Shown here: positions 5,404-22,821 of the stretch, one piece after another
Position numbering within the stretch: the stretch's first letter is position 1
How the letters are laid out: the number at the start of each line of letters is the position of its first letter
Source of the DNA: Methanothrix sp.
GTDB taxonomy: Archaea > Halobacteriota > Methanosarcinia > Methanotrichales > Methanotrichaceae
Length of the DNA stretch: 22,821 nt
Reading direction: 5' to 3'
Assembly (NCBI GenBank): GCA_040770465.1
Contig: JAXGJB010000043.1
Location: 1-22,821, forward strand
Position numbers and translations under genes: made by a program
Notes under the pieces: model-generated
The model's database searches: none
Told to the model about the DNA's origin: nothing
The model's input: only the letters and a program-made list of their open reading frames with translations

Positions 5404-6150
5404 ATGCCTTTCAAGATTGAATCGAGGAACCTGAACCTGTGGTACGGCGAGAACCACGCCCTGAAAGATATATCGATCGGCATGCCCGAGAATCAGATCA
5501 CGGCGCTGATAGGCCCTTCGGGGTGCGGGAAGTCCACATTCATCCGCTGTCTCAACCGGATGAACGACCTCGTCGACATCGTCCGTATCGATGGCGAGGT
5601 CCTCTACAACGACGTCAACATCTACGACAAAGATACGGACGTGGTGGAGCTTCGAAAGAACATCGGGATGGTCTTCCAGAAGCCAAACCCCTTTCCCATG
5701 TCCATCTACGACAACATCGCCTACGGCCCTCGGATTCACGGAGTGAAGAACGTGGACAGGATCGTTGAAGAGAGCCTCAAAAAGGCCGCCCTCTGGGACG
5801 AGGTCTCCGACCGCATCGAAAAGCCGGCCATGGGGCTCTCCGGTGGTCAGCAGCAGAGGCTCTGCATCGCCAGGGCCCTGGCCATGAAGCCGGATGTCAT
5901 CCTCTTCGACGAGCCCTGCAGCGCTCTGGATCCCTTATCCACGGGAAAGATCGAAGAGCTGATGGACGAGCTGAGAGGGTCGTACACCCAGGTGATCGTG
6001 ACCCACAACATGCAGCAGGCAGCCCGAGTCTCCGACTACACCGCCTACTTCCTCCTCGGCGAGCTGATCGAGTTCGGCGATACAAAAGAGATCTTCGAGA
6101 ACCCTAAAGAGAAGAGCACAGAGGATTACATAACGGGCCGGTTCGGATGA
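5404..6150 (+). CDS. pstB: Phosphate ABC transporter ATP-binding protein PstB
   Basis: [52 protein letters not shown], and C-terminal YITGRFG. Confidence 0.98.
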
Positions 6151-6172
6151 GTTAATCGACGGAGAGGGAGAG

Positions 6173-6832
6173 ATGAGTCCCTATAGAGAGCGTTATCACA
6201 GGGAGCTTGAAGAGCTCAAGATCGACGCGGAGAATCTGGTGGATCTGGTCGGCCAGGCGGTGGCCAAGTCGGTGGATTCCCTCCGCGAGTACGACGTGGA
6301 TAAGGCGCGAGAGGTCATAAGAGACGATCAGATGATCAACGATCTGAGCCTGAGGATAGAGAAGAGATGCATGCAGCTTTTGGCCCTCCAGCAGCCCATG
6401 GCAAAAGACCTCCGGCTGATCGTAACCACCCTGAAGATCGATATCGATCTCGAGCGGATCGGCGATCTCGCGGTGGACATAGCTCGGATCGTGGTCCACT
6501 CCAAAAACAAGGTCCACGTCAAGAGCCTGAAGAACATACCGAGGATGGCGGAGATCGCAGTTGAGATGCTGGTCCAGGCCAACAGGGCCTTCAAGGAGAA
6601 CGATGCCGAACTTGCCCGGGAGACGACGAAATGGGATTACGAGGTGGACGCCCTGTACCAGAAGGTCAGAGACACCCTCCTCAAGATCATCGGAGGAAAC
6701 CCAGACCTCATCGAGGATGCAACGCCCCTTCTCCTGGTCAACAAGCACCTGGAGAGGATCGCAGATCATGTATGCAACATATGCGAGAGCATCATTTACA
6801 TGGTCGAGGCGAAACGAGAACATCTCAACTGA
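6173..6832 (+). CDS. phoU: Phosphate signalling protein PhoU
   Basis: QQPMAKDLR, DLERIGDLA and HLERIADH twin PhoU repeats. Follows pstB. Confidence 0.97.
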   Translation: MSPYRERYHRELEELKIDAENLVDLVGQAVAKSVDSLREYDVDKAREVIRDDQMINDLSLRIEKRCMQLLALQQPMAKDLRLIVTTLKIDIDLERIGDLAVDIARIVVHSKNKVHVKSLKNIPRMAEIAVEMLVQANRAFKENDAELARETTKWDYEVDALYQKVRDTLLKIIGGNPDLIEDATPLLLVNKHLERIADHVCNICESIIYMVEAKREHLN

Positions 6833-6845
6833 TTGAGCGGGTTTT

Positions 6846-7847
6846 ATGGAGACCAGGAAAGTTCAGCGGACGGGAAAGTCGACCTTCATCGTCTCCCTCC
6901 CCAAGCTCTGGGCAGTGAAAAACGACATCCAACCGGGCTCCTTGATCTACATAAACCAGAGCGAGAACGGCGCCCTGGTCCTCACCCCCGATCGGTCCGA
7001 GAGGGAGCTGGCCACCAGGCTTGAGGTAGGAGACAAGGTGGGCGACCCCCTGATACGGGACATCATCGGCTGTTACGTCTCAGGGTACAGGACGATCGAG
7101 GTCGCCTCGACCCACATGACCGCAGACCAGAAGAAGGACATCCACTCGATCGTCCAGAAGCTGATCGGCCCGGAGATCCTGGAGGAGACGGTCAACAAGG
7201 TCCTGATACAGGACCTGATCGACCCGGAGGAGCTCCAGTCGGAGCGGGCCCTCCGGAGGATAAAGACGGTGGTGAGGTCCATGATCCAGGACGCCCTCAG
7301 CTCCCTGTTGACCAACGACCGGGAGATGGCCGCCGACGTCATCCAGAGGGACGATGACGTAGACAGGCTGTACCTGCTCGTCTCGCGCCAGTTCACCGAG
7401 ATTCTGCGGTCCGGCTCGGTGAAGCAGGAGTCCCTCGACCCCATCACCGCCTTCAACTACACCAGGGCCGCCACAAACCTCGAGCGGATGGCAGACCACG
7501 CTGCCAGGGTCGCCGAGATGATCCTCAAGTGCGACTGCACCCTTCCTGCCAACATCGTCGAGGAGATGAGCCGGATATCGCCCCAGCTTCTGGGCCTCAT
7601 CGAGGACTCGATATCATCTCTCGTCTTGCTCAACTCGGGGAAGGCGAACGAGGTTATCGAACTCTCCCGGCGGCTCCGAAGAGAGATCAACCAGATGGTA
7701 TCGGCCGCCAGCTTCTCAGACGAACACGAGGACGCCCTTTTGAGGATGGTGGCCACCAGCATCGAGCGTCTGCTCGACTACATCAAAAACATCGGCGAGC
7801 TCGCCATAAACCTCAGCCAGACCGTACCCCACACCGAGGCGAAGTAG
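6846..7847 (+). CDS. Archaeal phosphate uptake regulator (N-terminal AbrB/MazE-like DNA-binding domain plus PhoU domains)
   Basis: N-terminal RKVQRTGKSTFIVSLPKLW and PhoU-like DDDVDRLY, LERMADHA, ERLLDYIKNIGE. Lies in the pst cluster. Confidence 0.9.
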   Translation: METRKVQRTGKSTFIVSLPKLWAVKNDIQPGSLIYINQSENGALVLTPDRSERELATRLEVGDKVGDPLIRDIIGCYVSGYRTIEVASTHMTADQKKDIHSIVQKLIGPEILEETVNKVLIQDLIDPEELQSERALRRIKTVVRSMIQDALSSLLTNDREMAADVIQRDDDVDRLYLLVSRQFTEILRSGSVKQESLDPITAFNYTRAATNLERMADHAARVAEMILKCDCTLPANIVEEMSRISPQLLGLIEDSISSLVLLNSGKANEVIELSRRLRREINQMVSAASFSDEHEDALLRMVATSIERLLDYIKNIGELAINLSQTVPHTEAK

Positions 7848-8540
7848 GTGACGCCACCTTCTGCCCCCTCCGCCGAAGAGAGGAGACGTTTATTCTCGCT
7901 CCAGGACGATGTCGCGTCCAGGGTCGTCCTGGAGGACCGGTTCTCTGAAAAGGTGGTCGCCGGGGTCGACCAGGCCTTCATATCCGGGGAAGAAGGCGGA
8001 GAGTTGGTGGTCAGCGGGGCCGTCGCCCTCGACTCGTCCCTCCAGCTCATCTCCAAATCCTGGGCGGTCATCGAAACGACTTTTCCTTATGTTCCGGGCC
8101 TCCTCTCTTTCCGGGAGGGAACTTGTGCCGTGGAGGCGGCGAGGAGGCTCGACCCCGCCCCCACCATCCTCTTCGTCGACGGCTGCGGGATCAACCATCC
8201 CCGGAGAGCGGGGCTTGCAAGCGCCATAGGCGTCTCCCTCGACCTTCCCACCGTGGGCGTCAGCAAGAACGTCCTCTGCGGCAGCTTCGATCCGCCCCGT
8301 CGGGTGGGGGACGCCTCGCCCCTGGTCCATCGGGGAGAAATGGTTGGCTACGTCCTCTTCTCCAAAAAGAGGTGCCGTCCGATCGTGGTGGCTCCGGGCC
8401 ACCGGGTATCCGTCGAGTCGGCCCTGACTCTCGCCCAGCGGTACCTCCGGGACCACAAGCTTCCTGAGCCGTGTTTCTTGGCTCATCAGCATGCAAATGA
8501 CGTGAAGCGCCGAATTTTGAGAAAAGAGATATCTATTTAA
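7848..8540 (+). CDS. nfi: Endonuclease V (deoxyinosine 3' endonuclease)
   Basis: AGVD, FPYVPGLLSFRE, VDGCGINHPRRAGLAS, GVSK, KLPEP. GTG start abuts the upstream stop codon. Confidence 0.96.
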   Translation: MTPPSAPSAEERRRLFSLQDDVASRVVLEDRFSEKVVAGVDQAFISGEEGGELVVSGAVALDSSLQLISKSWAVIETTFPYVPGLLSFREGTCAVEAARRLDPAPTILFVDGCGINHPRRAGLASAIGVSLDLPTVGVSKNVLCGSFDPPRRVGDASPLVHRGEMVGYVLFSKKRCRPIVVAPGHRVSVESALTLAQRYLRDHKLPEPCFLAHQHANDVKRRILRKEISI

Positions 8541-13353: not shown

Positions 13354-14490
13354 GAGGATTTCGAATAACCCAAACATCGCAATGTTTATATACTATTATT
13401 ACTATAATTAACTCATGAATTCTTTAATCACATTTGCCTTACGAAAGAAGTACGAATCGATGGAGAAGGTTGGAGATCCTTTAGCTGATATTGGTTGTCT
13501 ATTAGACTGGGAGAGATTTCGGCCGCTTTTATCCGATATGTACGATAATAAGAGCGAAAAGGGAGGTCGACCCAATTACGATGAGGTCCTGATGATCAAG
13601 GTCCTTGTTTTAGGTCAATGGTACGGGTTGACGGATAAGGCGCTTGAACGAGAAATTTCTGATAAGATATCTTTCATGAATTTTCTAGGATTTCCTGAGA
13701 AGGCCCCCGACTCATCCACCATCTGGCTATTCAAAGAGCGTCTAATAAATACCAGAAAATATAATCCTGTGTGGGAAGAGATCAATCGTCAGCTCGATTC
13801 CCTCGGTTTAGTAGTCAGGAATGGCAGCATCCAGTATGCAACGTTCATCACAGCAGATCCAGGACACGCCAAAGCAGACAAGCCTCGCGGAGATGAAGCA
13901 AAAACAAGAAGAAGTAGTGATGGCACGTGGACAAAGAAGGGAAGCAAATCATCTTTTGGATATAAGCTTCATTCCAAAGTCGACAGAGAATTTGGCCTCA
14001 TAAGAGATCTGGAAACAACAACAGCGTCACTACATGATAGTCAGGTGGATCTATCCGAAGAAGGAGAAGTTGTATATCGTGATAAAGGGTATTTTGGAGT
14101 TGAGGCAAAAGGTTACTCAGCCACTATGAACCGGGGTACGCGAGACCATCCATTGAGCATTCAGGATGAGATGAGAAATCAACGGATCGCTAAAAAGAGG
14201 GCTCCCGGTGAAAGACATTACGCCATTATTAAACGAGTGTTTAGAGCTGCACATGTCATGGTCACAACCATTGCTAGGGTCCATGTCAAAATGATATTCA
14301 CTGCTATCGCATTTAATCTGCTCCAATTGCGAACTCTGAAAAAACAAAATGCCTTCTAGCGGAGGCTATCTATCTGAATCAAGAAATGAACATGTTAGAG
14401 GCGAATAATGGCCCCAAGTAGAACATAAAGATCAAAAATATTGGCGTGGAGCTTTGTAGGATCGCAGATCGCCGGTTAATAGAAATCCTC
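13354..14490 (+). mobile_element. IS5-family insertion sequence, 1137 bp
   Basis: 17-bp terminal IRs GAGGATTTCGAATAACC (13354-13370) and GGTTAATAGAAATCCTC (14474-14490), 15/17 match. TATA on both flanks (13350-13353, 14491-14494) is the probable target duplication. Confidence 0.93.
13415..14359 (+). CDS. IS5-family DDE transposase, probably inactive (first catalytic Asp replaced by Tyr)
   Basis: GGRPNYD, QWYGLTD, PDSSTIWLF, FGYKLH, YRDKGY, R.PGER...K. It has IQYAT where the family has I.DAT. Confidence 0.92.
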   Translation: MNSLITFALRKKYESMEKVGDPLADIGCLLDWERFRPLLSDMYDNKSEKGGRPNYDEVLMIKVLVLGQWYGLTDKALEREISDKISFMNFLGFPEKAPDSSTIWLFKERLINTRKYNPVWEEINRQLDSLGLVVRNGSIQYATFITADPGHAKADKPRGDEAKTRRSSDGTWTKKGSKSSFGYKLHSKVDREFGLIRDLETTTASLHDSQVDLSEEGEVVYRDKGYFGVEAKGYSATMNRGTRDHPLSIQDEMRNQRIAKKRAPGERHYAIIKRVFRAAHVMVTTIARVHVKMIFTAIAFNLLQLRTLKKQNAF

Positions 14491-15570: not shown

Positions 15571-16116
15571 CTAACTTATGTCCCACATCTCAATTACCCT
15601 GTCGACGAGAGAATCAAAAAAACTCTCTTTATAAGTTACCAGCAAATTTATAATCTCATCCTCATCGATTAGAATTTTATAATATGTATTCCTTCCATCT
15701 TTCGCTGACACTACTATTTCACTGTCCTCTAACTTTTTCAAATGCCATGAGACTGTAGAGGGGGAAAGATCAACGAACTGAACTATATCTTCATGATTGC
15801 AATTTTGATGTGTTAATATAAATAGTAATATATCTCTGACACTTTTTTGCCTTAATAATCCTAATAATATTTTATTCTCGGATTTGAACTGCCTTGGAAA
15901 ATAGAGCAATTTATTACCATACTTTTCTTCCTTGATCAGCCCATGTCGGCTCAAATAATTGAGATGATACTTCAATGTGCCTGTTGGTAATCCGCTTATC
16001 CGTTCAAGCTCCCTGAAATGGCATCCTGCAAACTTTTGCACAAGATTGTATATATTTCTCCGAGTATCTAACTCAAGTACTCGATTCTCCTCGCTAACAG
16101 GGAAATTGGAATGCAT
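15571..16116 (-). CDS. Tandem winged-helix transcriptional regulator, paralog of 9518-10039
   Basis: GCHFRELER...GTLKYHLNYLSRHGLI and DLSPSTVSWHLKKLEDSEIV. C-terminal LLVTYKESFFDSLVDRVIEMW. GAGG RBS. Confidence 0.9.
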   Translation of the reverse strand: MHSNFPVSEENRVLELDTRRNIYNLVQKFAGCHFRELERISGLPTGTLKYHLNYLSRHGLIKEEKYGNKLLYFPRQFKSENKILLGLLRQKSVRDILLFILTHQNCNHEDIVQFVDLSPSTVSWHLKKLEDSEIVVSAKDGRNTYYKILIDEDEIINLLVTYKESFFDSLVDRVIEMWDIS

Positions 16117-16900: not shown

Positions 16901-17461
16901 CTATCTCTGGCAAATCTCCCTCTCGACGTCCAGAAGCCTCCGTTTCAGGTCGACGCCAGAGCTGTAGCCTCCGATGCTCCTCGCTCCCACCACCCGGTGG
17001 CATGGAATTATCAGCGGGAACGGATTTTTTCCCAGGGCCTGGCCCACAGCCCTCGCGGCTTTGGGCCTTCCGAGCCGTTCGGCCAACTGGCCATAGGTCA
17101 TCGTCTCGCCGGGCGGGATCCTTGACGTGACCTCCAAAACCTCCCTCTGAAACTCAGTGAGACCCGAGAAGTCGAGTTCGAAGGGGACCGGCTCTCCCTT
17201 CAGCCAGCATCCCAGAAGGGCCTCTTCCTCATCCGGCGGGACCTGATGCTTCGGCCTCTCGACGGAGAAGTCGATCTTCCTGATCATGCCATCGCGCCTC
17301 TCCACCAGAAGGTAGAGGCCAAAAGGCTCCAGAAAGAATCCCTCAGCAGATTCACCATCCTCCGGAAGAGATCGCCTCCTCGAGGGCAGGAAGGCCGTCT
17401 CTCCGGAGTGGTCGGGGCATGCCGCGCGGTCGGAGAAGTCCCTCTCGATCTTCCTGGTCAT
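16901..17461 (-). CDS. ogt: Methylated-DNA--protein-cysteine methyltransferase
   Basis: TEFQREV, IPPGETMTYGQLA, ARAVGQAL, active site IPCHRV. ATG 17461 overlaps the upstream stop (ATGA). Confidence 0.93.
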   Translation of the reverse strand: MTRKIERDFSDRAACPDHSGETAFLPSRRRSLPEDGESAEGFFLEPFGLYLLVERRDGMIRKIDFSVERPKHQVPPDEEEALLGCWLKGEPVPFELDFSGLTEFQREVLEVTSRIPPGETMTYGQLAERLGRPKAARAVGQALGKNPFPLIIPCHRVVGARSIGGYSSGVDLKRRLLDVEREICQR

Positions 17462-17991
17462 GGACGTTTTCCGGTCATATCCAGGATGGAGGGGCGAGAT
17501 CCCATCTCCACGATCTCCGTCGCAAGGGACTCTGTATCCAGGATCGCCACCGTCTTTCGGCCGGTGAAGTGGCCCCATACCTCCCCAGGGTTGATCATCA
17601 GGGTATCTCCGGGAACGACCCTCACGTGATGGTCGTGCCCCCGGACGACTACGTCGTAGCGGCCCGAATCCACGAGAGCCGTCACCAGGGGCTCGTAGGT
17701 CCCGTGGAGGAGGGCGATCGATCTGCCGCCTGCCTCGACCTCGCCGAAATCCTCGAGAAACTCGCCACCCACCCGAGCGAAGTCGCGCTTGAGGCCAGTT
17801 CGGTCGCCGTCGTTGTTCCCGTAGACGAGCTTGAGCTCGCCCGCCCATCCATCGAAGGCGTAGCACATTCCGGGGGCTATTACGTCGCCGGCATGGAGGA
17901 TCATCTCGACGTTCCGTTTCTTGAAGATCGCCACGGCCTCCAGAAGGCCGGGGAAGTTGTCGTGGGAGTCGGACATTAGACCAATCAGCAT
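17458..17991 (-). CDS. Metallophosphoesterase, YfcE/MJ0936 family
   Basis: SDSHDN, HAGD, GNND, LHG, GHDH and NPG motifs. Confidence 0.95.
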   Translation of the reverse strand: MLIGLMSDSHDNFPGLLEAVAIFKKRNVEMILHAGDVIAPGMCYAFDGWAGELKLVYGNNDGDRTGLKRDFARVGGEFLEDFGEVEAGGRSIALLHGTYEPLVTALVDSGRYDVVVRGHDHHVRVVPGDTLMINPGEVWGHFTGRKTVAILDTESLATEIVEMGSRPSILDMTGKRP

Positions 17992-18158
17992 GATATCACA
18001 AACCTTTTGCCAGGAGGGAGGGTCTTTGGGCTTGACAGCCCGGAGAAAGACAGTGATCCTCGTTTATAGCTTTTGACGCTCCACTTTCAGAAACGGATAT
18101 GCGCCAAGCCCATACTAATCGAAAGGGCTAAATACGAGAATGGCTTTGCATCGTTGGA

Positions 18159-18265
18159 CCCGCCTTAACTCAGCCTGGTAGAGTGCGCGGCTGTAGTAGG
18201 TTTCGCGCCAGAAGGCGCACCGTGCGGCTACCGCGATGTCCCCGGTTCGAATCTGGGAGGCGGGA
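18159..18265 (+). tRNA. tRNA-Tyr(GTA) with a 33-nt canonical intron (18197-18229)
   Basis: Acceptor CCCGCCT/AGGCGGG with discriminator A (C1-G72), D stem ACTC/GAGT, anticodon stem CGCGG/CCGCG, T loop TTCGAAT. Bulge-helix-bulge at position 37/38. Promoter-like CGAAAGG-GCTAAATA at about 18120-18134. Confidence 0.96.
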
Positions 18266-18276
18266 CCTTGCTTTGA

Positions 18277-18349
18277 GTCCGGATAGTGTAGAGGCCTATC
18301 ATGAAGCCCTGTCGAGGCTTCGACCCGGGTTCGACTCCCGGTCCGGGCG
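18277..18349 (+). tRNA. tRNA-Asp(GTC)
   Basis: Acceptor GTCCGGA/TCCGGGC with discriminator G, anticodon arm AAGCC-CTGTCGA-GGCTT, T arm CCGGG-TTCGACT-CCCGG. Confidence 0.97.
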
Positions 18350-18357
18350 CTGAATGG

Positions 18358-18392
18358 GGGCGCAAGCATCGAAACTTGCGCCCTTCTCTTCT
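18358..18392 (+). terminator. Hairpin plus pyrimidine tract after the tRNA pair
   Basis: GGGCGCAAG-N8-CTTGCGCCC followed by TTCTCTTCT. Confidence 0.65.
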
Positions 18393-18447
18393 GATCCCAT
18401 CTTCTGCCTCGAAGGTCAGGGACGTTCGACTTTCGTAGCAGTTCAAT

Positions 18448-18461
18448 CGAAAAGTTTATTA
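18448..18461 (+). promoter_or_regulatory. BRE/TATA promoter with no downstream protein gene
   Basis: CGAAAAG-TTTATTA is near-consensus. Predicted start is about G18484. Confidence 0.7.
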
Positions 18462-18483
18462 CTAAATGATATGATTTCCATTT

Positions 18484-18627
18484 GTCGTGTAAAACGTTTC
18501 CATCTATCCACAGAAGAACCGCAACCAAGCCCGCCATCATGCGGTGAGACGCACGACATCACCGCTGCCTTGATGGCAGAGGAGGTGCCCAGGTCCCTCG
18601 GTGGGGCCGGGCATCCTCGACTCTTTT
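18484..18627 (+). ncRNA. Candidate structured small RNA (~144 nt), family not recognised
   Basis: Own promoter, extensive base pairing, and a final GC-rich hairpin followed by TTTT. No credible ORF. Confidence 0.55.
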
Positions 18628-18679
18628 ATGCGCCGTCCTTATGAGCATCCCCCATCTCAGCATCTTCAATTGTCGGGCA

Positions 18680-19078
18680 TCAGGAGCCAGATTTCGTCTC
18701 CAGCTCCTCTATCCTCCTCTTCAGGATCTTGATCTTCTCATCAAATAGCTCCCAATCGACGCTCCGATTGGCGGTGAGGACTTCCAGAAGCTTGATCAGC
18801 TCCTGGGTGGACTCGTCCTCTGAGAACCACGGATGGGCTGCAGAGAGCCCCTCGAGCCGTTCCTCCAGAGCTTCGTAGTTCTCGATCAGGCGGTCATCGG
18901 GGGATTCCCTGTTCTCCTGGAGGAGGTCGAGGGGTCTCATCAGGCTCTCAAGGCACCGGTAGTACTCGAGAAGGCTCTCTCTGGTAAGTATTGGAGGAGC
19001 CATCTCCACATCGAGAGGTTCGTAGGGCTTCGCGATCTGCTGAAGTTTCTCGCACCACCTTGCCCAATAATCAGTCAT
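18680..19078 (-). CDS. Hypothetical helical protein
   Basis: 132-aa ORF with a GGAGG RBS, host-like codon usage and charged amphipathic helices. Confidence 0.8.
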   Translation of the reverse strand: MTDYWARWCEKLQQIAKPYEPLDVEMAPPILTRESLLEYYRCLESLMRPLDLLQENRESPDDRLIENYEALEERLEGLSAAHPWFSEDESTQELIKLLEVLTANRSVDWELFDEKIKILKRRIEELETKSGS

Positions 19079-19228
19079 ATGCCGGATTCCTCCAGCAATT
19101 AAGTAAGGCTGTAACGTACTTAGTTCTATCGGGCATTGTCCGAAACGCCTAGTCTTCTTCCCATAATTGGGATGAAGAAATCAGGGCGATCCCTCGGTGG
19201 CAGGTCTCAGCGGTTTGCGGCCTTTCCT

Positions 19229-19666
19229 TCAAGGGAACTGGCGGGCGCAGGTCCTGGTCTTGCTGGCGCAGCGGCTCGACCAGAGCGGCCCATCGTTTGG
19301 GACCGGCCCTCGTTCCCTGAAGTTGTAGAGCCTCCAGCCGATCTTCATCCCGTCTGAGACGGCGAGGCTATCGGGCATCTCCATTGGGATCCGCCAGCCA
19401 GCATCGCCCCGCTCGAAGACGTAGTAGAGCCAGGCGTGGTCGATGTCGTTGGAAACGCCGTCTATGGCCGTCACCATCGATCCCAAATGGCCGGTGGCGC
19501 TCTCGTCCGCGGTGACGACGACCTCGGCCGAAGCCTCCAGGGCGTCGAGGACGGAGGCGCCGGAGGCGAGCCTCACTGCCTGGTGCCTGATCCTATCCCC
19601 CCCGTAGTTTATGGAGACGAAGGCCTTGATCTCGCCCTCGCCGCCCCTCTTCCGGCCAAAGAACAT
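19229..19666 (-). CDS. DUF4430-like (transcobalamin C-terminal-like beta-grasp) protein
   Basis: SVLDAL, G.MVTAIDGV.N, W.YYV and V.DG..I.W pattern. ATG 19666 is preferred over 19717. No signal peptide. Confidence 0.7.
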   Translation of the reverse strand: MFFGRKRGGEGEIKAFVSINYGGDRIRHQAVRLASGASVLDALEASAEVVVTADESATGHLGSMVTAIDGVSNDIDHAWLYYVFERGDAGWRIPMEMPDSLAVSDGMKIGWRLYNFRERGPVPNDGPLWSSRCASKTRTCARQFP

Positions 19667-19817
19667 CTGGTGGTGGGTTGGCCCGATGATACAAGACCTT
19701 ACCGGCTGGAGTCTCACGAGGCGAAGTCAGGCCGATGCCCTGAATAAAAGTGGTCGGGCCAAAAGGGGGTTTCTGGTCCAGACGCGCCTTCCCTCCCGAA
19801 ACTTTTTGTACATAAAG

Positions 19818-22205
19818 ATGTGTGGTATTTGGCAGGAGGGATACTCGACGAGATCGAAGCCGCTCATCGTCCTGGCGCTGCTGATGCTATCGCTGGCTGC
19901 AACCGCGCTGGCTCAAACGACGGGCAATGAGAGCGGCACAGATCAGATAGTAGTTGGAAGTGAAGATGAGGTAACCTCAGCAAAACCAGAACATATCGCT
20001 ACAGCCAGCCCCAACAAAAGCACGCCTGAGGAGACACTGACGGAAAAATCCACCACATCTAAAACATCTGACTCAATCAAATATATTCTTAGTTGGGTAT
20101 TAGCCATCATAGGTGCCATTGGCGCTTTGATAGCAATTTATGAATTTCTTTATAAGAGACGTATCGAAAATAAACGGCTAACTACTGAAGAAAATACCTC
20201 TATAACTACTGAGTCAATTCGCAATATCCCCTTCTCCCACAACCCCAACTTCACCGGCCGAGTGGACCTGTTAGAGAAGCTCCAGGAAGCCTTGAGTTCG
20301 GGAGAGCATGCCGCGATTACCGATTATCAGGCCATCACCGGCCTCGGCGGTGTCGGCAAAACTCAGCTCGCCCTGGAATACGCCTACAACCACTTGGACG
20401 ATTACCAGGTCATATGGTGGGTCCGCTCCGAGGATACCGCCACCTTAGCCGCTGATTACGCCAATCTGGCCGCGAAGCTCGCCCTCCCCGAGAAGACCTC
20501 TCAGGACCAGAGCACCATCATCTCGGCGGTGAGGAGTTGGCTTGAGCAAAACGACGGCTGGCTCCTGGTCTTCGACAACGCCCAGGACCCCGGAGACCTC
20601 AAGGACTACCTGCCCAAAGTAAGCGGGGGTCACGTGATCATCACCTCCCGGGAATCAAACTGGGGCGGCACAGCAAAGACGCTACCCGTCGACGTCTTCA
20701 GCCGAGAAGAGTCCATCGAATTTCTCCGCAAACGGACCGGGGGGGAGGACGGAGCCGAAGCCCTGGCAGACGCCCTCGGAGACCTCCCCCTGGCTCTGGA
20801 GCAGGCCGGGGCTTACATCGAGGAGACGGGCATAACTCTCTCCGACTACCTCAGCCGGTTCCAGGAAGAGCAGGTGGAGGTTCTGAAACGGGGCAAGCCC
20901 TCATCTTACCCCGCTACCGTCGCCACCACCTGGGAGCTATCTTTCAAGAGGGTCCAAGCCGAATCCGACGCTGGCGCAGACCTCCTTCGCCTCTGCGCTT
21001 TCTTGGCCCCAGACAACATACCCAAATCGCTCCTAGCAGAGGGGGCCGAGCTTCTGCCCGAGCCTTTAGCCTACGTTGTGACGAAACCTCTCGAGTTCGA
21101 CGATGCTGTGGCCGCCCCGAAGCGATACTCGCTTTTGACATTTGCTGACAACTTGCTCTCGATCCATAGGCTAGTGCAGGCCGTAACGCGGAATCGATTA
21201 TCAGATGAAGGACAGAGAATATGGGCCGAGGCTGCCTTGCGGCTTGTCGACGGCTCCTTCCCCGATAGTAATTATGTTCGTGCTTGGCCCTCATGTTCGG
21301 CTATTTTACCTCATGCGCTTGCCGCAGCTAAATGTGCCGAATATCTTCGGGTGGCTCCCAATACGACTGGTCGTCTTCTAAACATGGCTGGCATTTACTT
21401 AAGGCGACGCGGCGATCTCGACGGGGCCAAGTCCGTCTACGAGAAGGCTCTATCGATCCTTAATGAGGCCTACCTTAAAGGATCCACCCACCCCGACGTG
21501 GCCATGACGCTAGGAAATCTCGGTACCGTCCTAGTCGATAAGGGCGACCTCGACGGAGCCAAGGCCGCCTACGAACAGTCTCTGGCTATCTTCAAAGAAG
21601 TCTACGGCCCCGACTCCACCCATCCTGACGTGGCCAAGACGCTCGTAGGCATCGGTAACGTCCTGCACGGCGACCCAGACGGAGCCGAGTCCGCCTACGA
21701 ACAGGCTTTGGCTATCTTTAAAGAAGTCTACGGCCCAGACTCCACCCATCCCGACGTGGCCATGACGCTAGGAAATCTCGGTAACGTCCTTGTCCAGAAG
21801 GACGACCTCGACGGAGCCAAGGCCGCCTACGAACAGGCTTTGACTATCTTCAAAGAAGTCTACGGCCCCGACTCCACTCATCCCGACGTGGCCATGACGC
21901 TAGGAAATCTCGGTATCGTCCTGCACAAGACGGGCGACCTCGACGGAGCCAACGCCGCCTTCGAGAAGGTATTATCGATCTATAATGAGGCCTACGGCCC
22001 CGACTCCACCCACCCCTCCGTCGCCAGGACGCACATGAAACTCGGTATCGTCCTACACAATAAGGGTGACTTCGGCGGAGCCAAGGGCGCCTACGAGAAG
22101 GCTCTATCGATCTTCCGGATGCAGTTTGGTGAGGACCATTCTCTCACGTTGAAGGTGCAGAACTCTCTCGATGCTCTTGAACGCGAGATGAAGAGCAAAA
22201 GATGA
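19818..22205 (+). CDS. Membrane-anchored STAND NTPase (NB-ARC) with C-terminal TPR repeats
   Basis: Signal peptide (ATALA|Q), S/T-rich linker, TM followed by KRR, NPNFTGR, Walker A GLGGVGKT, Walker B LLVFDNA, IITSR, LPLALEQAG, IHRLVQ, and six 42-44 aa TPRs. The nearest ATG is 19818, but the RBS points to ACG 19848. Confidence 0.9.
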   Translation: MCGIWQEGYSTRSKPLIVLALLMLSLAATALAQTTGNESGTDQIVVGSEDEVTSAKPEHIATASPNKSTPEETLTEKSTTSKTSDSIKYILSWVLAIIGAIGALIAIYEFLYKRRIENKRLTTEENTSITTESIRNIPFSHNPNFTGRVDLLEKLQEALSSGEHAAITDYQAITGLGGVGKTQLALEYAYNHLDDYQVIWWVRSEDTATLAADYANLAAKLALPEKTSQDQSTIISAVRSWLEQNDGWLLVFDNAQDPGDLKDYLPKVSGGHVIITSRESNWGGTAKTLPVDVFSREESIEFLRKRTGGEDGAEALADALGDLPLALEQAGAYIEETGITLSDYLSRFQEEQVEVLKRGKPSSYPATVATTWELSFKRVQAESDAGADLLRLCAFLAPDNIPKSLLAEGAELLPEPLAYVVTKPLEFDDAVAAPKRYSLLTFADNLLSIHRLVQAVTRNRLSDEGQRIWAEAALRLVDGSFPDSNYVRAWPSCSAILPHALAAAKCAEYLRVAPNTTGRLLNMAGIYLRRRGDLDGAKSVYEKALSILNEAYLKGSTHPDVAMTLGNLGTVLVDKGDLDGAKAAYEQSLAIFKEVYGPDSTHPDVAKTLVGIGNVLHGDPDGAESAYEQALAIFKEVYGPDSTHPDVAMTLGNLGNVLVQKDDLDGAKAAYEQALTIFKEVYGPDSTHPDVAMTLGNLGIVLHKTGDLDGANAAFEKVLSIYNEAYGPDSTHPSVARTHMKLGIVLHNKGDFGGAKGAYEKALSIFRMQFGEDHSLTLKVQNSLDALEREMKSKR
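21411..22140 (+). repeat. Six near-identical TPR-coding DNA repeats (132-bp unit)
   Basis: Units start at 21411, 21543, 21669, 21801, 21933 and 22065 (spacings 132, 126, 132, 132, 132). The last unit is partial. Confidence 0.92.
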
Positions 22206-22466
22206 GAGGAACATCAAGCGGGCCAAAGGATATCCAGAGTTCTAACTAAGTTCTAAAACGGCCGAGTCTGATGGCCCGCCCCCGACTGGAGGCGCGGTGG
22301 CGAGGATACCACCCACTGGATTTCACCTCCGACAAGGTGGGGAGAGCCGAAAGCCGCTCCACCTTCTGGTTATCGGTGAATAGAGCGGGGGATTACCTAT
22401 CGCTCCCCACCCATCACCTTCTCGATTCCTGGTGACCGCGGGGGGTTTCGAGCCCGGGCTCGAAGT

Positions 22467-22821
22467 CTAAGATCGAATGTACCTGTTCTTGAAGTAGGAG
22501 TACTCGCCGAGGGCCTTTCGGATCGTCTCCCTAGCCCTCTCACCTTCGGCCTCGCCGCCGCAGCAACGCGACGCCACCTCGCCCAGGAGCTCTTCGGGCT
22601 CATAGTTGAAGAACCGGAGGAGCTTATCGCAGACGTCCCCCCGAACGACCTTCGATATCCTCCAGCCGTCGTCCTCGTCCTCCACGGTGACGTGGACCTC
22701 GTTGACGCAGCCGAGAAGGTTGTGGAAGTCTCCCAGGGTGTCCTGGTACGCCCCAAGAAGGAACGTGCCGAGGTGGTAGTCCTCGTCCTTTCTCAGATCA
22801 TGGAGGGCTATGAAGTCGGCA
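22467..22821 (-). CDS. speA: Biosynthetic PLP-dependent arginine decarboxylase, C-terminal part (runs off the window)
   Basis: The frame is open to the window edge: ...IALHDLRKDEDYHLGTFLLGAYQDTLGDFHNLLGCVNEVHV...RGD...LLRFFNY...LGEYSYF. This matches the SpeA pattern LGxFLxGAYQExLGxxHNLFG. Confidence 0.85.
   Translation of the reverse strand, partial: ADFIALHDLRKDEDYHLGTFLLGAYQDTLGDFHNLLGCVNEVHVTVEDEDDGWRISKVVRGDVCDKLLRFFNYEPEELLGEVASRCCGGEAEGERARETIRKALGEYSYFKNRYIRS

Follow-up and report, generated by a model that had tools for sequence, protein, structure and literature searches.

Positions 18484 to 18627 of a Methanothrix sp. contig (JAXGJB010000043.1), read on the + strand, are very probably a genuine gene for a structured non-coding RNA. 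All coordinates refer to the window, meaning the whole stretch of 22,821 nucleotides (nt) that was analyzed. The unit lies between genes, contains no conserved open reading frame (ORF), and in all likelihood possesses a promoter of its own; these are the features by which intergenic small RNAs (sRNAs) are recognized. The evidence as a whole is best explained by an independently transcribed, structured, non-coding sRNA that acts in trans and is confined to one genus, a reading to which a probability of roughly 0.5 is assigned. The gene is absent from Rfam and from the literature found, and it is a lineage-specific archaeal sRNA and not a new kind of system.

Conservation was profiled over 17 aligned loci (both copies in the window's own genome included), from the 3′ part of the transfer RNA (tRNA)-Asp gene at 18328 into the terminal part of the convergent gene, up to 18713. 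The profile peaks at the promoter, at a 13-mer (0.97 at 18498–18507), at a loop (0.95 at 18548–18557), and at a 3′ stem (0.91 at 18608–18617); past 18627, it drops to 0.47 and then to 0.00. The promoter CGAAAAG-TTTATTA of the original prediction is read at 18448–18461, exactly where it had been placed, and consists of a B recognition element (BRE) and a TATA box. Judged from the sequence, transcription probably starts ~26 nt after the TATA center, at or beside G18484. This is the distance expected for an archaeal start site, and the conserved transcribed block starts exactly at GTCGTGT (18484). The spacer between TATA box and start is constant in length and variable in sequence, with a conservation of 0.79–0.82. 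At the other end, where a terminal hairpin followed by TTTT had been proposed, a GC hairpin (~18579–18619) and TTTT (18624–18627) are present. No protein gene follows on the + strand, as had also been noted: the next gene on this strand is distant, and the two following ORFs lie on the − strand. The conserved BRE and TATA box, together with the sharp edges of conservation, support the view of a stand-alone RNA gene with its own promoter. The parts of the unit that define its boundaries are as follows.

18435–18473, + strand: promoter cassette, containing BRE and TATA box; column conservation 0.96–0.97 over 18448–18467
18448–18454, + strand: BRE CGAAAAG, directly abutting the TATA box
18455–18461, + strand: TATA box TTTATTA, part of the promoter cassette
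18484–18627, + strand: predicted non-coding transcript of ~143 nt, a conserved block from GTCGTGT to the T-run without a conserved ORF
18624–18627, + strand: T-run, likely an archaeal termination signal; T-rich in all orthologues, with conservation collapsing just 3′ of it and an RNA contig ending at 18626

The gene is confined to one genus of the Methanotrichaceae, by the searches made. A 601-nt query (18100–18700) was compared by blastn with 41 genomes; herein, both tRNAs were matched in 41 of 41, and matches to the region 3′ of tRNA-Asp were limited to the 15 other members of the genus, with 68–93% identity. In nine sister genera, unrelated sequence without a similar unit stands 3′ of tRNA-Asp. 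A covariance model, R1, was built from 16 sequences (147 positions, 25 pairs) and matches 18484–18629 of the window at 152 bits. Among 105 genomes of the family, it matches 16, namely that of the window and all 15 others of the genus (96–156 bits), and none of the 89 genomes from 15 other genera. In a class-wide sample of 151 genomes, matches are seen in the window's genome and in each of the 13 other members of the genus that the sample contains; in the 137 genomes outside the genus, the best match reaches E = 0.04 at 19.9 bits, under the stricter filters that apply above 40 genomes and by which weak matches may be lost. Four matches outside the genus (E = 0.04–0.1, 19–20 bits) were treated as noise. 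The collection of homologues 3′ of tRNA-Tyr/Asp in the Methanotrichaceae, suggested with the original prediction, thus finds the unit conserved in every one of the 15 other members of the genus.

The gene order is the same in 17 of 17 loci and reads Metallophos_2 phosphoesterase (−), tRNA-Tyr, tRNA-Asp, sRNA (+), and a gene for a 132-aa protein (−). Beyond it, 14 of the 17 loci show a match to a gene for a 162-aa protein (−); the 17 loci are all cut at ~3 kb or less. The sRNA stands 134 nt 3′ of tRNA-Asp in every genome. Both protein genes (18680–19078 and 19229–19717, − strand) are convergent to the sRNA, and no Pfam family was found for either product. The 132-aa gene occurs in 15 of 15 genomes of the genus and in one of 89 elsewhere in the family (G045, of another genus), where the homologue follows the tRNAs without an sRNA between them. 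On the upstream side, tRNA-Asp (18277–18350) is the sole call of both ARAGORN and Rfam. A tRNA-Tyr-like gene with the anticodon loop CUGUAG and a ~35-nt intron can be read by eye at ~18159–18265 (+) and is conserved across the class; it is called neither by ARAGORN nor by Rfam at either threshold. Between tRNA-Asp, which it directly follows, and the sRNA promoter stands a conserved hairpin (GGGCGCAAG...CTTGCGCCC; ~18358–18395, +) whose tail is rich in T and C. This hairpin is likely the end of the tRNA operon, which seems to have its own terminus because hairpin and T-rich tail lie between tRNA-Asp and the sRNA promoter.

A second copy of the sRNA, 94–95% identical, is present on contig C41 of the window's genome. 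This contig resembles the window at 5497–8521, 16901–21262, and 22453–22820 (87–97% identical, tRNAs and sRNA included), with 93% identity over the two longest aligned blocks. The reported contamination of the genome is 3.44%. The copy stems either from a segmental duplication or from another strain that was binned together with this one.

Two mutually exclusive folds had been described for the RNA, and the second of these, Fold 2, is the one maintained in evolution. Its pairings are readily read in the sequence: GCCATCA (18533–18539) with TGATGGC (18571–18577), and GCGGTGA (18541–18547) with TCACCGC (18559–18565). They form a central hairpin of two helices, which pair in 86–87% of cells with seven pairs changed on both sides; the covariation check proposed for Fold 2 hence turned out in its favor. 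In G015, the upper helix is compensated as GCUGUGAG/CUCACAGC. Counted together over 16 sequences and 491 cells, Fold 2, the terminal hairpin, and a helix P1 (GUCGUG with CACGAC) pair in 92.7% of cells, and 10 pairs are changed on both sides vs 3.7±1.3 in shuffles, none of 500 reaching this number; slid controls pair in 40–46% of cells. RNAalifold, run on the same 16 sequences, independently predicts two hairpins, namely the central one of Fold 2 and the terminal one, and keeps the first 50 nt unpaired. A metagenome scan, whose pattern omitted both P1 strands, hit 112 stretches and returned 80 of them as loci, 13 of which R1 confirmed. The 17 genome loci and the metagenome sequences comprise 21 distinct full-length sequences; in the alignment that includes the metagenome sequences (22 distinct rows), 12 of 25 pairs are changed on both sides (4.3±1.5 when shuffled, 0 of 500 reaching) and 90.8% of cells are paired. 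The compensations are readable directly in both alignments. When read as the + strand, 90.9% of cells pair, as opposed to 83.5% for the − strand, 39 cells being G-U; the + strand is therefore taken to be the RNA. The elements of the RNA, in sequential order, are listed below.

18484–18489, + strand: 5′-terminal GUCGUG, one strand of P1, complementary to the loop word CACGAC and predicted to pair with it; invariant in 16 of 16 and in the 21 distinct sequences
18498–18510, + strand: invariant or near-invariant single-stranded 13-mer UUCCAUCUAUCCA, the candidate seed; conservation 0.97, unpaired in the consensus fold
18533–18539, + strand: lower helix of the central hairpin, 5′ strand; partner 18571–18577, 87.2% of cells paired, four of six pairs changed on both sides
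18541–18548, + strand: upper helix of the central hairpin, 5′ strand GCGGUGAG; partner 18558–18565, 86.4% of cells paired, three of eight pairs changed on both sides
18549–18557, + strand: apical loop of 9 nt; conservation 0.95, with CACGAC (18552–18557, alignment columns 70–75) invariant in all 21 distinct sequences
18558–18565, + strand: upper helix of the central hairpin, 3′ strand, AUCACCGC here and CUCACC.. in most species
18571–18577, + strand: lower helix of the central hairpin, 3′ strand UGAUGGC, from alignment and consensus fold
18584–18615, + strand: terminal GC-rich hairpin, helix 18584–18596/18603–18615, its stem extending over ~18579–18619 in the window; 96.0% of cells paired, three of 11 pairs changed on both sides in 16 sequences and five of 11 in the larger alignment

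The RNA falls into none of the following known classes, which agrees with the earlier remark that it could not be assigned to a family. At gathering scores, Rfam 15 reports only tRNA-Asp in the whole window, and a permissive scan of 18050–18750 gives nothing credible within 18484–18627, the sole overlap being the long non-coding RNA HOTTIP_4 at 14.8 bits (E = 5.4). A protein-coding function was rejected: neither start, frame, nor length of the longest ORF is constant across the 16 orthologues, and in the window, a GTG is immediately followed by TAA. A riboswitch or cis-regulatory leader was rejected as well, there being no downstream gene on the same strand and the next genes being convergent in 17 of 17 loci. 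Box C/D sRNAs carry a C box (RUGAUGA) near the 5′ end and a D box (CUGA) near the 3′ end; neither box is seen at the conserved ends of the alignment, and no C/D family matches inside the unit. H/ACA RNAs are characterized by an ACA box 3′ of a hairpin, a two-sided pseudouridylation pocket, and a kink-turn (K-turn) or K-loop. Here, the hairpin is flanked by AGA, AAA, GGA, or GAU and not by a conserved ACA, the internal loop has 1 nt on its 5′ side and forms no two-sided pocket, and tandem G-A motifs are absent. ARAGORN and Rfam give no tRNA or tRNA-like element at 18484–18627. RNase P RNA is encoded on contig C11 (209.6 bits), and an integrated element at the tRNA was discarded with no integrase nearby.

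From this anatomy, the following mode of action is proposed. A strong BRE/TATA promoter would start transcription at or beside G18484. The ~50 nt at the 5′ end would be mostly single-stranded and display GUCGUGU at the extreme 5′ end and UUCCAUCUAUCCA further in, both of them invariant; the two-helix central hairpin of Fold 2 would come next, and the GC-rich 3′ hairpin with its U-run would terminate and stabilize the RNA. The exposed 13-mer, which is unique in the genome apart from the copy on contig C41, would pair with messenger RNAs (mRNAs) in trans, possibly together with the loop. Both GUCGUG at the 5′ end and CACGAC in the loop are invariant, and the former probably docks on the latter, creating a pseudoknot that is stacked on the central hairpin and does not constitute a rival fold. 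Regulation is probably shared with two to three other sRNA-like units that bear the same promoter cassette. A regulator that base-pairs in trans is favored because the anatomy comes closest to that of the intergenic sRNAs of Methanosarcina mazei, which are likewise genus-restricted; the assignment is tentative and falls slightly short of an even chance.

Transcript data are available as contigs from three metatranscriptome runs of one anaerobic-digester study, which were found with 18440–18640 as the query and compared over 17900–19200. In run X1, a single 249-nt contig (depth 2.2) covers 18394–18626 and ends in the T-run; with 13 differences in 233 nt, it stems from a related strain. In run X3, a contig of the convergent gene stops at 18631. 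The two contigs are weak evidence for a pair of convergent units meeting at the hairpin and T-run. Runs X2 and X3 do not cover 18384–18603, which is no evidence of absence.

Several of the observations weigh against an independently transcribed, trans-acting sRNA of this form. The X1 contig carries 16 more upstream letters (to ~18378) and thus spans the sRNA promoter; read-through from the tRNA operon, or DNA carry-over, would account for it just as well as initiation at 18484 would, and such contigs show neither RNA ends nor strand. The alignments sample one genus, so relatedness inflates the shuffle statistics, and the larger alignment is also fitted to the model. When the genome was scanned for the complement of the 13-mer, no exact match was found outside the antisense of its own copies (contigs C43 and C41), and 84 near complements (≤1 mismatch, G-U allowed) are scattered in ORFs with no pattern relative to start sites. 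Helix P1 shows no covariation; its two strands are invariant in the 21 distinct sequences, and covariation is uninformative in either direction because they never vary. The pair extending P1 is U-G in 15 sequences and U-A in one, and the next is A-U in nine, G-C in one, and a mismatch in six; these changes are at most a hint of pairing. The geometry of the proposed pseudoknot is derived by reasoning and not by computation. The chance that P1 pairs in some form is put at even.

Several other explanations account for parts of the same evidence. That the RNA is a processed 3′ trailer of the tRNA-Tyr/tRNA-Asp transcript, and no separate gene, would agree with its fixed distance to tRNA-Asp and with the sole RNA contig that runs upstream through the promoter. 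It is nonetheless extremely improbable, given a near-invariant BRE and TATA box correctly spaced from the point where conservation begins, the occurrence of the same cassette ahead of unlinked non-coding units, and the conserved hairpin with T-rich tail between tRNA and promoter. The convergent layout in 17 of 17 loci, with ~50 nt between the stop codon of the 132-aa gene and the 3′ end of the sRNA, calls to mind a cis-antisense or boundary element, in which the sRNA unit or its GC hairpin would end or modulate the − strand transcript of 18680–19078. Both genes are nearly restricted to the genus, the − strand has no T-run between stop codon and hairpin, and the RNA contigs from either side stop at 18626 and 18631. 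Such a role is very unlikely, however: the pairing statistics favor the + strand, conservation of the promoter and of the first 100 nt goes well past what a terminator would require, and in G045 the 132-aa homologue comes after tRNA-Asp without an sRNA. A protein-binding or scaffold RNA, either as part of a small ribonucleoprotein or as a protein sponge, would turn the invariant words into protein contacts instead of seeds. Three such words (5′ GUCGUGU, the 13-mer, and the loop GAYGCACGAC) stand separately amid diverging sequence, as is typical of protein or tertiary contacts, and they are explained in this way as well as by a base-pairing regulator. The lack of convincing mRNA targets in the 13-mer scan and the strong promoter, like that of stable RNAs, point in the same direction. 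This role is nevertheless considered unlikely, since no K-turn, C/D, or H/ACA signature is seen by eye in the alignment and no candidate partner protein is at hand, the neighboring genus-restricted 132-aa and 162-aa proteins having no Pfam family.

The remaining alternative is the one put forward in the original prediction, namely a bistable riboregulator in which Fold 1 frees the ..UCACC.. strand, Fold 2 frees the 5′ region, and the toggle sets which element is exposed. The segments that make up Fold 1 (18483–18489, 18495–18500, and 18518–18523, complementary to 18540–18558) are present in the sequence, and Fold 1 is the minimum-energy fold of 18480–18630. At -57.5 kcal/mol, this stretch is more stable than its shuffles (mean -44.9, z = -3.11, 0 of 200 as stable). 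Forced P1 and Fold 2 folds differ by ≤2.1 kcal/mol in eight of 16 orthologues (range -7.7 to +12.4), with the P1-containing fold minimal in six of 16 and the Fold 2-containing one in two of 16. Both P1 strands are invariant, and ACCGC (columns 35–39) duplicates the 3′ partner of GCGGU in 11–14 of 16 sequences. Competition between folds is hence thermodynamically possible according to these energy models, which ignore pseudoknots. In evolution, in contrast, only the helix GUCGUG/CACGAC of Fold 1 is kept; its other parts are not maintained, the share of paired cells being 77.9% for P2, 76.0% for P3, and 62.0% for the small hairpin, with few compensations. The structure was derived from the window sequence, which biases the counts toward that sequence. 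In G015, compensation is seen in the upper helix of Fold 2 but not in its Fold 1 partner; in G003, G006, G008, and G012, P3 is wholly absent. Fold 2 is thus the only one of the two folds with evolutionary support.

Nor do the two folds have to exclude each other, as had been claimed. By topological reasoning, P1 by itself does not force Fold 2 open and can coexist with it as a pseudoknot with the hairpin loop because of the geometry of loop and linker. The 5′ strand of P1 is tethered via a 52-nt linker, and CACGAC directly adjoins the 3′ strand of the upper helix. On geometric grounds, three loop nt could span the deep groove of a helix that has 6 bp and stacks on the upper one. The switch is therefore an unproven possibility resting on one invariant helix, and a bistable RNA is quite unlikely. 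The Shine-Dalgarno–like word GGAGGTG, said to be buried in the last hairpin, is present at 18581–18587 and is not conserved, reading GGAGATG, AAAGATG, or AGAGGTG in other species.

The promoter cassette of the sRNA also occurs elsewhere. The 20-mer CGAAAAGTTTATTACTAAAT is found in six places of the window's genome (≤4 mismatches). Four of these are the sRNA locus, its copy on C41, C7:77986, and C30:9284, and each of the four precedes ~150 nt of non-coding sequence that ends in a GC hairpin and a pyrimidine/T-rich tail. The matches on C5 and C61 have four mismatches and were not counted as sRNA units, the C5 site lying just upstream of an apparent protein-coding start. Four relatives contain three to four cassette sites each at ≤3 mismatches vs zero to one for a reversed control. 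The cassette sites head at least three further sequence types. Sister units occupy C7:77986–78180 and C30:9284–9480, and neither locus matches an Rfam family. Of the 15 other members of the genus, 13 retain the C7 type, and the genomes of the two that do not match are 81% and 84% complete; a further sister type occurs in G001, G008, and G012. Paralogy of the C7 unit was not upheld. A profile that includes the promoter gives E = 1.7e-9, whereas the transcribed part alone gives E > 1; the local alignment of the two consensus sequences is no better than 136 of 1000 shuffles, and R1 gives E ~2. Only the promoter, including the stretch just 3′ of the TATA box, is demonstrably shared with the sister units at the level of sequence, and this sharing suggests common control of the cassette units.

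Several sister units carry GACCUCC words, and the 3′ strand of the upper helix of the sRNA contains (A/C)UCACC, of which 5–6 nt are shared with the tail of 16S ribosomal RNA (rRNA) of G001 (GGAUCACCUCCU). A single search word did not locate the 16S gene in the assembly to which the window belongs. An anti-Shine-Dalgarno role is speculation, as an overlap of 5–6 nt could be chance. A still wider scheme can be drawn, in which a genus-wide regulon of three to four unrelated sRNAs is controlled by one ~30-nt cassette and one factor. Herein, the present RNA would be pseudoknotted or bistable, the docking of its 5′ end would decide whether the seed or the ..UCACC.. strand is exposed, and the sRNAs would jointly tune translation initiation in an obligately acetate-using methanogen. 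This scheme is considered quite improbable.

The Methanotrichaceae are acetate-splitting methanogens that are important in digesters and wetlands. A search of one literature library for sRNAs of Methanothrix/Methanosaeta found no paper describing sRNAs in this group. The locus is an entry point to post-transcriptional control in these organisms, offering precise boundaries, a structure backed by covariation, an invariant candidate seed, and sister loci. In its architecture, it resembles bacterial Hfq-type sRNAs, which are built of seed and terminator: in both, a single-stranded and conserved 5′ region precedes hairpins, the 3′-most of which is GC-rich and trailed by a U-run. It differs from them in belonging to another domain of life, with a BRE/TATA promoter and different rules of termination. 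With riboswitches and bistable leaders, it shares two computed folds of similar energy that use one common strand; unlike riboswitches, it has no downstream gene of the same orientation in the 17 loci and no Rfam riboswitch match, and its alternative fold is unconserved. Like archaeal guide sRNAs, it is predicted to be a small, stable, structured RNA with a strong promoter, but the terminal C/D boxes, the conserved ACA, the two-sided pocket, and any Rfam small nucleolar RNA match within 18484–18627 are missing.

Functionally understood archaeal sRNAs are few, according to the review PMC5867862. The examples it describes from M. mazei, sRNA154, sRNA41, and sRNA162, are intergenic and pair with their targets via loops; they act in trans on mRNAs, ribosome-binding sites included, via exposed loops or stretches, and sRNA154 is described as highly conserved in Methanosarcina and as having a stable secondary structure (PMC5867862). 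The present unit is similarly a free-standing intergenic sRNA gene in a methanogen of the same class. The likeness is one of gene setting and proposed function and not of demonstrated homology in sequence or structure; R1 finds nothing in other families of the class. The complementarity of an invariant 5′ end and loop is not among the features described for them in the passages considered (PMC5867862).

The remainder of the window contains further features. A double winged-helix regulator (HTH_HVO_0163_N + HTH_24) is encoded at 15571–16116 (−), and a DDE transposase of an insertion sequence (DUF772 + DDE_Tnp_1) at 13415–14359 (+). Inside the 132-aa coding region, at 18686–18723 (−), a leuA-Halobacteria match of Rfam remains below threshold (20.1 bits vs a cutoff of 47.9, E = 0.11) and is probably due to chance. 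The stretch 19611–22205 (+) encodes an NB-ARC/TPR protein of the STAND type with 864 aa, whose internal TPR repeats at 21410–22113 have a self-identity of 76–80%. Elsewhere in the genome, a ~90-nt repeat (...GGCTCCTCGCTGTTT.ATGTGGGTAG.TTGAACTTGAGTTTTCCTAATCT...) was encountered five times among the near-matches to the seed, at C4:10579, C8:13144, C8:46630, C42:4348, and C42:5742, and may be the end of a mobile element.

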